Below, piece by piece: positions 1,521-48,746 of a stretch of DNA of 64,000 nt. The stretch covers positions 67,270,001 to 67,334,000 of the forward strand of contig OX597826.1 of the NCBI GenBank assembly GCA_951406725.2, read 5' to 3'. The stretch comes from Octopus vulgaris. Lineage: Eukaryota. The notes beneath the pieces are model-generated. The model saw nothing but the letters and a program-made list of their open reading frames with translations, had not been told where the DNA came from and made no database searches. Numbering within the stretch: position 1 is the first letter of the stretch; every line of letters begins with the position of its first letter. The position numbers and the translations under genes were made by a program.

Positions 1521-2019
1521 ATATATATATATATATATATATATATATATATATATAGGGGACTAAAGCCATCTGAATATGGCTAGTCCCTTATGTTATC
1601 GAGCAGTTACTGTCTATATCTCTTTTAGAGAATTATTATTGCTATATATATATATATATACACATATATATATATATATATATATATATGTATATACGGA
1701 GCAAATGATTCAGGAGAAAATATTTGCGAAGATATTAATGAGTTTATTATTATCTAATGTAACAATAAAAAATTATAATAAAAGAATCAATAATATAGGC
1801 GATTGCAGGCCCCAAAATCATTAAATAGATGAAGGATCATAATTGATCAAAGGACAAAATAACTATGTCTACCTGCTGGAATTATGTCAAAAGCTTTATT
1901 TATATCGCCGGTTGATATCTGTAGTTTCCATCAGATGTTTTCGGCGATTGAAATAAGAGTTTTGACTGTTATTTCCAACAGGCAGACATACTTAGTATAT
2001 CATTTGATTAAATATATAT

Positions 2020-2112
2020 ATATTTCTCTCCTTGTTTATTTTTGTGTTCCTTTCTGTGGAAAAGCGAAAGCTCGAAACGTTAAAGACTTTTTCACTTCCC
2101 GAGCGTTATACT
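2020..2112 (+). mobile_element. Solo 3' terminal (pLTR) fragment of Neptune-type Penelope-like element with variant hammerhead motif (2050-2087)
   Basis: cttt-CTGTGGA-A-aagc-gaaa-gctc-GAAA-CG-TT-aaag; homologous to the 3' end of the GIY-YIG-bearing element at 16373-17480; embedded in (TA)n. Confidence 0.7.
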
Positions 2113-5100
2113 AATATATATATATATATATATATATATATATATATATATATATATATGTACATATATAAATTAGAAAAAAAACACCTTTTATCAATTC
2201 AACAATGAAAAGATTAAATATATATATTACATTTTGTGAAATTTGATTTCTAAATTGAATTTTTCCCTGTAAGTCTGGAATAATATTCCCAATTATTATC
2301 ATTATTATTATTATTATTATTATTATTATTATTATTATTATTATTATTATTATTATTGTTATTATTGTTATTATTATTATATATATGTTTGTGTGTGCGT
2401 GTATGCCACACACACACACACACACACACACACACATATATATATATATATATTATATAATATGAAGCATACAGTATATGCTGTTCTATACACTCGCACA
2501 CACACACACACACACACACACACACACGCACTCGCATACACATACATGCACACAGACCCACGCACACATGAACATCTCCGAAAATGTCATTCTCTATCTT
2601 TTTTTTCCCACTTACACTCCATCGCGTTTACTTCGTTCCTTTGTGAGATGACATACAGTCATGCACATACCCACTTTCTCACATGCACGCTCACCCATAC
2701 ATACACTCACCCACTCAGTCTACTAGTCTGTCACTCACTCTCACACTCACTCATTCACTCACTTCCTTCCGCTCACTCTCCACCTCTTTCTCATAATTTC
2801 ACAAATCACTGCTCAAACCGTTTTCTGTTTCCCTTTAATCTTTATCCATTAACCACCCTAACATCTCAGGATATGCTTCAGCGTATAAACAGCACTTCCA
2901 TGTACAAACATATACAAACGCATGTATGCACATACTCATAGACTTATGCACGCATACATTCAGTCACACAAGCGCGCACAAATATGCATATCTGCATGCG
3001 TGCATGCGTTATCAATCAATTAATATGTCTATCTATCTATCTATCTATCTATCTATCTATAGATATATATATATATATATATATATATATACATGTCTGT
3101 ATATGTATGTATTTATGTATATATGTACACACACTCACGCATACATATATGCATACATACATGTTTATATATATATATATATATATATATATATATATAT
3201 ATATATATATTAGTGTATATATATATATATACATCTATAAAAATATATATACATATATATATACATATATAATAAATATATACATATATATATATATGTA
3301 CATATATATATATATATATATATTTTATATATGTATATATATATTTGTGTATTTCTGTATATATATATATATATATATATATATATATATATATACATAT
3401 ATTTGTGTATGTCTGTAGGGATTAGGGATATGACAGATGTACTACAGTGTTGCCTGTCTGGCAACGGATTAATGGCGTGTCTATTAAAAGCTACATATCC
3501 ACGAGATATTTGACAATATTTGTTTTTTTAATTTTTTTATTCTTTGAAAGCTTTCAAAACCATACAGGCAATAGATTTTGTGATTTTTCCCCTCTTCATT
3601 TTCAGAATAAGTTAAGTATTTCTCATAGATTTCTGGTTTATAATTCAATAGCTTATTGCTCTTCTTAGCAGAGGAAAATATGTTCACTATTTCTTTACAC
3701 TAATTCGTCGACTATTTATCCAAAGTATATGAGTTTGCGATAGAATTTCCATACGGGCCAATGAATTTTAAAGAGTGTGGTTAACGGTGTGTTTATCGAG
3801 GCAAGGAGGGATCCAAAAAAAACGCCAAAGTGTGTAACCCTAATGAGCATTGAGCAGAACAATAAATGAATAAGGAAAGATTTAACCTACCTTCCTTCTA
3901 CAAATTGCAGGTAAATTTCCATAGACGCATAGTAATATGTGGACAATCTCTTTAAATATTACAGGATGGTGACTGATAGAAAATGCCGTACGTGTGAATT
4001 TTTGTTCTCTTAATGTTGACCTGGGTCATATTAATAACAGAAAAACTTCATCAACAACCATCAATTTATGACTTGTTCTTGTTAATGCAGTATGATCAGA
4101 GCATGGGTAAAAATCTCCAAGCTATGTCCAAATTTTTTTCCGAAACACTGCATTTGCAACTATAGTACTCAATAAGTCTATACACTCTTTTCTAACTGTA
4201 AATATGATTTGACAGAAATTTCACCGCAGAATCAAGAAGATCTTGCAACGAAAGCGAATTAGCCATGTTGATGAATTTTTTAATCATATTATAAAGTTTT
4301 AATCCTCGGAGAAAGAACATGACGTATAATCCTTTTCAGCAACTTATGGAGGGTTGGGTGGAAAAGAGGAAGTTATCGAAAAAGCTTGTAACAGAATATG
4401 GTCTTCGTTAAATAAACACAAAGATCAAGTAGAGGTGATGAAAGAAGCGAGAGATTAAGTCTCGTAGCAGTGAACAGTAGCGTTTCCTCAATTCGGGTTT
4501 ACGTTTACCCAGTTTCACTGACAAAGCGATGGTCAATCTGGTTCTAAGGTGGAAGATGGAGAATTGTTCATCATGCTGTGCAATGGGTACGAACCAGAAA
4601 GCACATTGTTGAGAAGCATATTTTCTAACCTCACAGCCATGACAGAGCCCAAGGCACAAACGGGAAAAGGGTGTCACAGCAAGATCAGCTCATAGATTGC
4701 TGTTGTTGCTGTTAAGCAACAAGACGGGTAAGTGATTAGGTGATGGTCAAGGGCTTTGGGGCGGGAGACCCCAGACCTTGGAAAAAGAAAACTTTGGTCG
4801 TCTTGTTGTAGCCGAGGGCTCTTCATTGACGCCCGACACTACTGGGAGGTGGCCCTCGAAGTCGCTGGAACTGGAGATCTCCAGATCCAAATTCTTGAAC
4901 GGCCTCATAGATTGCTGGTTACTCGGGTAAGTTGGATTTCGTTAACCTTAAAAGTGGGTGGATTTCGGCTCCACATTTTTTTGTCTTACAAGGAAAAGAA
5001 CTGCGTTGCTAAGAATAAAATGTTTATCTGAATATATAAGCTAAAGTGATCGATCAAAATTTGAAATCCTTTCACTAATGTAACAATCGATGTATCTTGT

Positions 5101-6215
5101 ATTTCCACGCTTGTTTCATTATCATTAATTAACTGAAAGATAATTTTGTAATCTGTTTATCATGATGAACAACGGAGGTTATTAAGGTTGGTGTTGTCGC
5201 TTTTTTGTGTTGTTCTTGTATTTGTTGCCATCATCACCGTTGTTGTTGTTTAACTCACCACAACAATAACAACGACGACAACAACGACATCAACCACACC
5301 TGCCTCTGAGGCTTAACACAATGAAGAGAAACCAATTAAATTATCGTAACACTTTTCCATTATAAAATATAATTCATTATATAATAGGTGTATAATATTG
5401 ATTAGGAAATAAATGTCATATCGTGCTCCCCCTTCTTCCAACGGCTACATATATCTTCCCATACTACTTATTAGAGTTGTCATGTGCCCTCCACCCAAGT
5501 CTATCTTGCCCGCCTTCACTCTAGCTACCAACAGAATCTACGAGTGTTTAGAAATAAATTGAACCAGATTTGTAAGATCAATTTCATAAAAAGTAACACA
5601 AAGTTCTCTGAAAGTAGTCGATTACGTTAAATATTAGTAGAAAGCGAAAAATTTTGCGAGCAAATTGTAAAAAAAAAAAAAAGGAAAAGAAAAGGATTTT
5701 CTGTAAGTTGATTCTAATTTACTTAGTTGGTAATTTAATATGTTATTGAGAAGGATTCTTTTTATTAAAATTTTAATGCATCTAGAATTTCCTTCTCCTC
5801 ATCACCAAATTCTTCTCGTTGCTTGAAACCTATTGCAACATGGCTTCGTTAGAGTAAAATTCTTCAGAGATTTTGTTGTTTATGTTTTATTTCTAATCTT
5901 GACTGAAGTGGATCCATTCTCATCCATACTACTTTTCTAAAAATTTAGATTTTTATTATTTTTTTTTCTAGATTACTCTCGAAAACATATTTTCAAACGT
6001 GACATTGCTTAATGATACACTGCAAGAAAAAAGTAATGTATCTTCTAACAAATATGGCAATTTGAGATCACCACCTATATTTTTAAGCATTCCTTAACCA
6101 AAATTCTTTCCACGAGTGGTATAGGGTAGAACAGTTAGGGTTAGCAGGAGACTACTCCAAAACGGCAGCTTTTAAACTTTTATGTTCTGATATATTAGTT
6201 TATACATTCAAGTTT

Positions 6216-47901: not shown

Positions 47902-48065
47902 TATATTGGCAGGGCTTACTGCTAGGGAGTCGGCCGTATGCTAGAAATAGACCATCAACGGTCAAACTGAGGAATTTTCCTCTAGAGAATTTCCTTGTAG
48001 TTTGACCGTTGATGGTCTATTTCTAGCATACGGCCGACTCCCTAGCAGTAAGCCCTGCCAATATA
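47902..48065. repeat. Perfect 67-bp inverted repeat with near-palindromic 30-bp spacer, next to (TA)n
   Basis: 47902-47968 is the reverse complement of 47999-48065; explains the two opposite-strand ORFs with identical N-termini. Confidence 0.95.
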
Positions 48066-48270
48066 CACATGTATTAGAATTTTCTCTGACTCCTCAGATT
48101 TTTGTATGCTGGACTACTGGTTTTAAATTGATATTAAAATTAATATTAATTTATCTCCCTCATTATTTAAATATATATATATATATATATATATATATAT
48201 CATAAATTTATACAGAAATACATATGCATATACATCAATATATATATATATATATATATATATATATATA

Positions 48271-48746
48271 TATAGAAAATAGTAAAAAGTGAAAAAACTA
48301 CAGAAGGCTTGTTTTAAAAGGTTAAAAAAATATATATTTGAGTCAATATGTCTGAAGAATGTTATAAATATTTTTCATACAATGACATAGATTAGAAGAA
48401 ATGACCGGTTTCGCGTATAGCTTTTCAAATTTCTTAAATCGTTATGTTTACGTTGAGCGGTGATCTAGATAATAAGTGATTTCTTCCGCTGTAAGGGAGA
48501 TAATCGCTTAAAATTATTTGCCTTTCTTTTGGATTGAGTTCTCTGTATAAGTATGTTGGAATGGTTACGTTTGGGCTTGTATTTTTCAATGAAGAATGTT
48601 TCCTTGTTTAGTCTAATTTAACATTCTTCAGACATATTGACTCAAATATATATTTCTTAACCTTTTAAAACAAGCCTTCTGTAGTTTTTTCACTTTTTAC
48701 TATTTTCTATATATTCAACCACGTGCTTTCACATACCAACTTTCTT
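48271..48746 (-). mobile_element. 5'-truncated Penelope-like element with inverted terminal arm, inside (TA)n
   Basis: Minus-strand RLNKETFFIEKYKPKRN (GIY-YIG C-terminal R-x-x-x-E...KP-x-LN-like); HHR; 48271-48364 is the reverse complement of 48619-48712. Confidence 0.8.
48396..48435 (-). ncRNA. Minimal type I hammerhead ribozyme with U3-A8 core
   Basis: Minus strand: aagaaat-TTGAAAA-GC-tatac-GC-GAAA-CCGG-TC-atttctt; perfect 7-bp stem I, palindromic stem III, GUC triplet. Confidence 0.85.

Follow-up and report, generated by a model that had tools for sequence, protein, structure and literature searches.

In the present analysis, we examined nine fold-back structures in a 64,000-nt stretch of Octopus vulgaris DNA (assembly GCA_951406725.2, contig OX597826.1, positions 67,270,001 to 67,334,000 of the forward strand; hereafter, the window). 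Most of these structures are probably insertion scars of Penelope-like elements (PLEs), i.e. head-to-head pairs of 5'-truncated copies, likely formed when both ends of a broken (TA)n target primed on UA-rich sites of the element RNA. The attribution to Penelope-like machinery, which had been proposed in a preliminary description of the window, is well supported and provides the best explanation of the data: the family at one site is predicted to encode a reverse transcriptase (RT) and a GIY-YIG nuclease, and its architecture matches that of PLE units. The twin priming proposed in the same description is plausible in a modified form. The fold-backs are referred to as sites 1–9 in order of position. 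Each site was used as a query against the window's own genome; copy numbers given below are first-look candidates, and identities and structures were taken from scored copies only.

Inverted repeats in the window were identified by self-BLAST after masking of simple repeats with TRF; unmasked repeat finding was swamped by (TA)n self-pairing. With arms separated by less than 2 kb, 14 inverted repeats were found in the masked window, among them eight of the nine sites, and an element-by-element comparison recovered the same eight. The arms of site 1, which are more decayed, gave a local alignment score of 57 against a shuffle maximum of 26 (none of 2,000 shuffles reached the observed score), and thus inverted arms are present at all nine sites. 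No cross matches between the nine elements were detected at E ≤ 0.01, indicating that they share no common sequence, as had been described.

Because (TA)n is dense in the window, chance proximity had to be tested. Tracts of at least six TA units number 77 and make up 4.5% of the bases. Their spacing is ~0.8 kb, compared with ~1.4 kb in random DNA, for which 40 stretches of 10 kb were placed at random in the same genome (400 kb in total; loci L096–L135). Non-overlapping inverted repeats with arms of at least 40 nt and a gap of <1,000 were regarded as anchored when an outer end lay within 12 nt of such a tract, and the counts were compared with 5,000 random placements. In the window, six of the eight inverted repeats are anchored at exactly one end and none at both, against an expectation of 1.09 ± 0.96, and none of the placements reached six. 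In the random stretches, one-end anchoring applies to 11 of 52 inverted repeats, where 5.07 ± 2.08 were expected (11 was reached by 35 placements), and two-end anchoring to none; an unfiltered count gave 22 of 134 against 11.2 ± 3.2 expected, which 4 of 2,000 placements reached. Anchoring is one-sided in all 17 cases from the window and the random set, and the far arm in the window runs on for 38–271 nt. The preliminary description, in which one arm mostly ends in (TA)n while its partner continues and site 2 lacks (TA)n, is therefore borne out in these respects, and the enrichment near (TA)n for which it proposed a test is seen. The density of inverted repeats is ~1.3 per 10 kb in the window and in random DNA alike, and about one-fifth of the random set is anchored. 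The one-sided (TA)n pattern is genome-wide, and the window is richer in it than average.

The coding link to PLEs was found at site 9, which consists of two 5'-truncated 3' ends of one family (345 and 128 nt) placed head to head, with their 3' ends facing outwards into (TA)n. The left arm (48275–48619, minus strand) is tail-less and abuts (TA)n at 48238–48274, and the right arm (48620–48746, plus strand) carries a tail of 38–39 nt at 48708–48745 and abuts (TA)n at 48746–48810. The two arms are 97.8% alike over 90 nt. The family has at least 2,576 candidates. In each of the other 39 scored copies, the sequence extends beyond position 345 into the element body, and the break at this position is thus peculiar to the window copy. 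The body contains open frames on the strand opposite to the query. In one copy (L047), an 801-codon frame contains FYGLPKIHK, LRPIVAGP, and AMG..AP..AN, which we take to be PLE-type RT motifs, followed C-terminally by a NIIYVIKCSGCHQDYVGST core whose IIY and YVG elements flank two cysteines (C..C). The frame also contains CGRPNCATC, a CX4CxxC linker corresponding to the CX2-5CxxC feature of the Neptune/Nematis/Naiad type; a clear YxDD box is not present in this copy. The nearest Atlas clusters combine RVT_1 and GIY-YIG (RVT_1 cluster score, 0.97), which we treat as a lead only. Given an RT followed by a GIY-YIG domain and the CX2-5CxxC linker, the family is read as a canonical endonuclease-bearing PLE, with a predicted organization of the Neptune/Nematis type.

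The segment 48617–48470 (minus strand) encodes residues 748–797 of the 801-residue RT/GIY-YIG frame (E = 5e-13). Accordingly, the GIY-YIG-like C-terminus noted earlier at site 9 corresponds to the last ~50 codons of such a frame, and it lies downstream of the catalytic core rather than containing it. A tblastn search with the PLE frame gave no further coding match in the window, and a protein search with the frame gave 18,263 first-look candidates in the genome, all 150 scored matches showing 90–100% identity. Five long copies of the family begin at five different points and are all 5'-truncated, and partial tandems (pseudo-long terminal repeats, pLTRs) were not seen among them. In copy L136, an inverted copy of 570–730 nt lies against a direct copy of 2.5 kb, with the junction at 3075/3076. 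All 27 PLE-family 3' ends examined, 11 tailed and 16 tail-less, are followed by (TA)n. The 5' flanks of 14 solitary copies consist of (TA)n in four cases, unique sequence in nine, and imperfect TA/TG-rich sequence in one, and no target-site duplications (TSDs) were recognizable by eye at the solitary copies.

The same arrangement, namely an inverted 5'-truncated copy plus a direct copy, is found in the non-coding families at sites 4, 5, 6, and 8. At site 8 (47904–48170, plus strand), the arms (47904–48061) show 92–93% identity, the left being in minus and the right in plus sense; the left arm ends at (TA)n 47853–47898, and the right copy extends for ~109 nt (48062–48170) to (TA)n at 48171. This continuation on one side is common to five other copies, and the central junction is distinct in each of the six; four copies of the family stop in (TA)n at a position that two others pass. 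At site 6 (44529–44992, plus strand), an inverted 5'-truncated fragment in minus sense (~44529–44635) is followed by a direct unit (~44633–44992) that stops 11 nt beyond the arm, at (TA)n 44993–45044. The family is old (73–80% identity), and partial tandems and head-to-head pairs of it occur elsewhere in the genome. At site 5 (38474–38706, plus strand), the left arm in minus sense abuts (TA)n 38388–38473, and the right arm has a 64-nt continuation (38643–38706) followed by (CT)n(TATC)n(TA)n. Thirty-four of 39 other scored copies of this family are linear, and the five fold-back copies differ in arm ends and central junctions.

Site 4 belongs to a young, non-coding family with 97–100% identical copies and partial tandems (~35 copies of query positions 192–665), in which at least 14 direct and 11 inverted 5'-truncation points were observed. 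Its left piece (23456–23654, minus strand) is an inverted 5'-truncated copy of 199 nt that abuts (AT)n 23398–23455 and contains the terminal 97 nt of the unit and an extension of 102 nt, in which a linker of 22 nt leads into the initial 80 nt of the next unit; the template thus spanned a tandem junction. The extension differs from 23650–23727 by two mismatches, counted by eye. The right piece (23647–24120, plus strand) is a full 474-nt unit without the extension and abuts (AT)n 24123–24145. Site 2 (6211–6925, strand not assigned) contains an inverted fragment and ~1.25 tandem copies of a ~400-nt unit, with arms at 6271–6352 and 6692–6773 (84% identity) and a repeat of 6425–6530 at 6826–6925; the family is old, with 225 candidates. 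Partial tandems resembling pLTRs are therefore present in the non-coding families at sites 4, 6, and 2. In the head-to-head pairs, the same 3'-terminal 77–135 nt are duplicated in both arms. In the fold-backs as a whole, an extra 34–109 nt on one arm belongs to the family, so that the ends are asymmetric.

In the families of sites 1 and 3, the hairpin and a one-sided tail form a fixed unit in nearly all scored copies. Site 3 (15595–15910, plus strand) comprises a hairpin (15595–15876) and a tail (15877–15910) that is internally deleted in the window copy, and is flanked by (TA)n on both sides (15571–15594 and 15911–15926). TSDs of 8, 9, 10, 10, 12, 13, and ~13–14 bp were found at seven of 14 aligned copies, these seven being the ones situated outside (TA)n in AT-rich DNA. 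Copies of this family differ by ~15%, yet 95.0% of arm cells form standard pairs, and 17 of 118 pairs (32 cells) are changed on both sides. Shuffles gave 5.9 ± 1.7 pairs and 8.8 ± 2.4 cells (none of 500 reached the observed values), and slid controls gave one to five pairs. Either the hairpin is needed by active lineages or source copies have been re-made from one arm. Site 1 (1800–2011) is an old hairpin unit with arms at ~1842–1910 and ~1927–2011 (~78% alike), which has a 41-nt extension at the left only (1800–1841) and ends on the right at (TA)6 2012–2023; it is assigned to the minus strand from the side of the extension. Sites 1, 3, and part of 8 have spread as ready-made hairpin-plus-tail units, and their hairpins are inherited rather than made at each insertion. 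Site 7 (45426–45485, strand not assigned) is a lone 60-nt palindrome (83%) that adjoins merely (TA)4.

The ends of the copies suggest how the pairs may have arisen. Each pair is bounded on the outside by 3' ends of the element, and truncation points and central junctions vary from copy to copy. The check proposed earlier, whether arm ends map to TA-rich positions of the families, is positive for the tail-less ends in four of five families, site 5 being the exception. These ends (at the slash) read TTTTC/TATATAT at site 9, CAATATAATATAA/ at site 4, CAACAG/AATATAG at site 3, and GCCAA/TATACA at site 8, where a second terminus, TTTAAATAT/, is likewise TA-rich. Since (TA)n is self-complementary, either DNA end of a break could pair with a UA-rich RNA site and prime. 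We propose that the GIY-YIG nuclease would cut within or beside (TA)n and that the resulting (TA)n ends would pair with UA-rich sites near the 3' end of the RNA and prime cDNA synthesis. Priming at a distal site would retain the tail and priming at a proximal site would drop it, and the two cDNAs, made from two RNAs or from one RNA re-used, would meet and join. Priming from both ends of the break would place an antisense copy before a sense copy, both with their 3' ends facing outwards, as observed. Certain products, namely those at sites 1, 3, and part of 8, later spread as whole units, probably by the same route of retroposition. The earlier proposal that both ends anneal to the same RNA needs revision in one respect: as the arms duplicate the same 3'-terminal 77–135 nt, an RNA read once is insufficient, and two templates or re-use of one are needed.

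The preliminary description also stated that five of the structures contain hammerhead ribozymes (HHRs) or half-HHR motifs, and this found no Rfam support. At the gathering score, no HHR was matched in the window or in 20 family loci (70 kb), and none was found at E ≤ 10 at sites 2, 9, and 4. In a permissive Rfam scan of the window, the best 150 of 402 matches were all microRNA-like or other simple-repeat matches. A motif scan (CTGANGA, helix II of at least 3 bp, and GAAA) gave one plausible core at 6643–6682 in site 2, in which the predicted cleavage-site base reads G by eye, and one dubious match at 50268; shuffles gave zero to three. Two half-motifs, GAAACCGGTC (site 9, sense strand) and CTGACGAACATGAAATGCATA (site 4), were noticed by eye and are no more than resemblances. 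Minimal PLE hammerheads may escape the Rfam models, and Craig et al. 2021 (PMC8557442) describe Naiads without hammerheads.

Several observations weigh against the insertion-scar account. Only site 9 carries a coding tie to PLEs, sites 1–6 and 8 being assigned by architecture, and the Pfam matches of the L047 frame lie under the cut-offs (RVT_1, E = 1e-4, 22.5 bits against 29.6; GIY-YIG, E = 0.0033, 18.1 bits against 22.6). None of the five long copies of the coding family has a full-length 5' end or a pLTR, and HHRs were not seen by Rfam in the families searched, though canonical PLEs with a C-terminal nuclease are said to carry them in pLTRs. No single TSD enclosing a head-to-head pair was readable; the (TA)n flanks hide any target duplication, so that formation of the pair in one event is inferred only. 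The element itself might bring or synthesize the (TA)n found at its 3' ends, which would then not be part of the target. In addition, the tail-less end of site 5 is not TA-rich, and seven of the 14 copies aligned for site 3 are inserted in ordinary AT-rich sequence, (TA)n being preferred and not required. The likeness of the site 3 tail to the PLE tail is not significant (73, 96, 291, and 992 of 2,000 shuffles reached the observed values). Site 7 belongs to none of the fold-back families found, and among 40 scored matches its palindrome is covered by the self-match alone.

Among the alternatives, the one that survives best holds that sites 1, 3, 5, and 8, and perhaps 4 and 6, are SINE-like (short interspersed element-like) retroposons moved by long interspersed elements (LINEs), with (TA)n as their 3' tail and with pairs arising by LINE twin priming or as chance neighbours. 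LINE RT fragments recognized by eye in the window (28820–29323, minus; 59162–59497, minus; and 60905–61435, plus) fit this idea, as do the other retroposon families that end at (TA)n and the coding-family flanks, in which (TA)n is far more frequent at 3' than at 5' ends, as a tail would be. LINE twin priming inverts without duplication, whereas the arms here duplicate 77–135 nt, and the one-sided tails, pLTR-like partial tandems, and head-to-head pairs correspond to the published PLE signature. The coding PLE family itself is credited with features of this signature, but not with partial tandems, which were not seen there; no sequence link to any LINE was found, nor was one searched for. On this evidence, we regard LINE-driven origins as rather unlikely.

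An origin of the fold-backs as cut-and-paste miniature inverted-repeat transposable elements (MITEs) or Foldback-type DNA transposons, e.g. Tc1/mariner derivatives with a TA target, whose terminal inverted repeats would form the arms, is far less probable still. Long inverted arms and TA-rich insertion are typical of such elements, and almost every scored copy of the site 1 and site 3 families has the same fixed ends. However, the TSDs of site 3 vary between 8 and 14 bp, the one-sided, family-owned continuation of 34–109 nt leaves the ends asymmetric, and 5'-truncation series, partial tandems, and copy-specific central junctions are present. Site 9, moreover, is part of an element predicted to encode an RT, and the PLE-frame search gave no other coding match in the window, transposase families not having been searched for. 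Taken together, TSDs of variable length, ends that are not symmetric, the series of truncations, and the tie to an RT exclude an origin as cut-and-paste MITEs, and so the alternative of MITEs with fixed, symmetric ends, against which the preliminary description was to be judged, fails. That the association is a by-product of composition, i.e. dense (TA)n lying nearby by chance or palindromic derivatives of microsatellites, is scarcely credible: the short (TA)n spacing and the dominance of self-pairing in raw repeat finding would favour it, but the masked placement test exceeds expectation in both the window and random DNA, anchoring is one-sided in every case, and the arms are complex sequences of multi-copy families.

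The insertion-scar reading remains the preferred one. The sequence next to the PLE 3' ends was also recorded. A (TC)n run lies between ...TTTTC and (TA)n at seven of 16 tail-less ends (L014, L016, L019, L024, L026, L045, and L136) and at none of 11 tailed ends, and (TC)n likewise follows ...AATC in the site 5 family (38707–38765 in the window). Counted over the window and the 400 kb of random stretches, X-(TC)n-(TA)n arrangements number six, and the reverse order is absent. Slippage of the RT at initiation is one possible cause of this polarity. A broader idea, which we offer tentatively and consider unlikely as it stands, is that the PLE tail and the head-to-head pairs share one cause: (TA)n ends would prime at any UA-rich RNA site, tail-less copies would be internally primed, and the telomerase-related RT would slip when synthesis begins and thereby deposit polar (TC)n(TA)n as well as (TA)n. 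If this were true, PLEs would be a source as well as a user of the exceptional (TA)n load of this genome, and they would supply long hairpin RNAs editable by ADAR.

With respect to editing, none of the runs recorded as RNA covers the stretch. In one contig matching the right arm of site 9 (48629–48713), from a run presumed to be RNA, eight of nine differences at 48659–48683 are A>G, in a multi-copy family and with no DNA control; several contigs of a second study, likewise from a run presumed to be RNA, show A>G at the same positions. These clusters hint at hyper-editing. At site 8, the differences are of several kinds and recur in a DNA-like run, and no editing-like cluster was found. The hairpins might serve as substrates for RNA editing or enter small-RNA pathways. 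More generally, most of a dense class of hairpin-forming repeats can be assigned to one known mechanism, which cautions against annotating them as MITEs. The TA-rich termini, the read-through tail, the 3'-biased (TA)n, and the polar (TC)n(TA)n also give a testable account of the odd shape of PLE insertions.

Other repeats in the window also meet (TA)n. Among 740 tract flanks examined, one terminus recurs 25 times and two others six times each, showing that retroposon families other than the fold-backs also have ends at (TA)n. The most frequent terminus belongs to a SINE-like family whose end ...GGAAACTGAAAGAAGCCCGTCG abuts (TA)n, with window flanks at 28396 and 49088; similar ends lie near 1500–1520, 17257–17592, 25049–25276, 29916–30146, and 42070–42466. 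As this family holds 25 of the 740 flanks, (TA)n anchoring is general to retroposons in this genome and not particular to fold-backs. A young, non-coding retroposon of 382–396 nt (97–99% identity, at least 2,902 candidates), one end of which, ...CGGGCGATACTGCTAG, abuts (TA)n, has three copies in the window (45046–45430, ~11762–12331 on the minus strand, and ~33825–34067); site 7 lies beside the end of the first. Next to site 1, between two (TA)n tracts, is a 91-nt 5'-truncated end of another abundant family (2023–2113, 95–96% identity), which contains GCGAAAGCTCGAAACG, loosely resembling a hammerhead fragment.

At 13528–13588 and 13704–13764, 61-nt arms that are 95% alike face each other across (TA)57. 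The right arm represents one terminus of a longer family (at least 2,388 candidates); the (TA)n-proximal end of this family varies by 1–19 nt, and the pair is tail-to-tail on one tract, the mirror image of the head-to-head pairs. Compound microsatellites (e.g. 11773–11858 in the window) are also strongly polar: on both strands of the window and random loci, (CA)n is followed by (TA)n 44 times, against eight times for the reverse order. This polarity gives rise to self-complementary (CA)n(TA)n(TG)n blocks and hence to many microRNA-like Rfam matches. In addition to the three LINE-like fragments given above, a frame at 61650–61940 (plus strand) resembles, by eye, a LINE RT or endonuclease fragment.

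Among known systems, twin priming of L1 offers a parallel in mechanism. In the process that Ostertag and Kazazian reportedly described in 2001, both cut ends prime, and the product carries an inverted 5' part next to a direct 3' part. A single RNA serves as template in this process, which inverts without duplication and leaves a poly(A) tail at one end only. The fold-backs may resemble it in that both target ends would prime the RT; unlike L1 products, both of their arms begin at the element 3' end, overlap by 77–135 nt, and end in (TA)n. Classical L1-type twin priming was therefore rejected, the arms being duplicates and not adjacent stretches of one RNA.

MITEs and Foldback elements share long inverted arms, small size, and high copy number with the structures described here, which differ in their asymmetric ends, variable TSDs, truncation series, and one family predicted to encode an RT. 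Animal non-LTR retrozymes are described in a recent preprint (bioRxiv 10.64898/2026.07.22.740005) as non-autonomous derivatives of PLEs, and non-autonomous elements of Chlamys appear in PMC8557442. Sites 2 and 4 resemble retrozymes in their short, non-coding, head-to-tail units and PLE-like spread, but retrozymes consist of tandem units of 170–400 nt that each contain a type I hammerhead, and no hammerhead was found at any Rfam threshold at these two sites.

The closest relatives are the endonuclease-bearing PLEs (Penelope/Poseidon, Neptune, Nematis, and Naiad). PLEs form one of six transposable element orders in a published repeat annotation of O. vulgaris (PMC13282606), and Naiad-type PLEs are reported from cephalopods in PMC8557442, which also defines the CX2-5CxxC linker for the nucleases of Neptune, Nematis, and Naiad. 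According to the same paper, PLE insertions are frequently 5'-truncated, often with an inverted 5'-truncated copy by the upstream end that forms inverted repeats, and they show partial tandems, a tail of 30–40 bp that is often at one end only, a preference for (TA)n targets, and variable TSDs. The fold-backs share with these elements the 5' truncation with an inverted copy at the 5' end of the direct copy, the partial tandems, the (TA)n preference, the variable TSDs, and the one-end tail (38–39 nt at site 9); the site 9 family also shares the CX2-5CxxC linker and, as predicted from its frame, would share the order of RT and GIY-YIG with internal cysteines. They differ in that no hammerhead is detectable by Rfam here, that tails reach 64–109 nt in some families, that the tail-less end lies at a TA-rich site of the element, and that the site 4 tail is a read-through into the next tandem unit.

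In PMC8557442, the mechanism of PLE insertion is called undefined and the tail is ascribed to endonuclease-mediated resolution. The TA-rich tail-less ends and the read-through tail of site 4 suggest alternative priming sites instead, and no printed proposal of (TA)n priming from both ends was found for Penelope elements in the literature searched. The recurrent architecture pointed out in the preliminary description is therefore real and genome-wide, although it is not new, having already been described for PLEs in PMC8557442. To that description, the present analysis adds termini at TA-rich sites, a tail that arises by read-through, and a hairpin family with co-varying arms.

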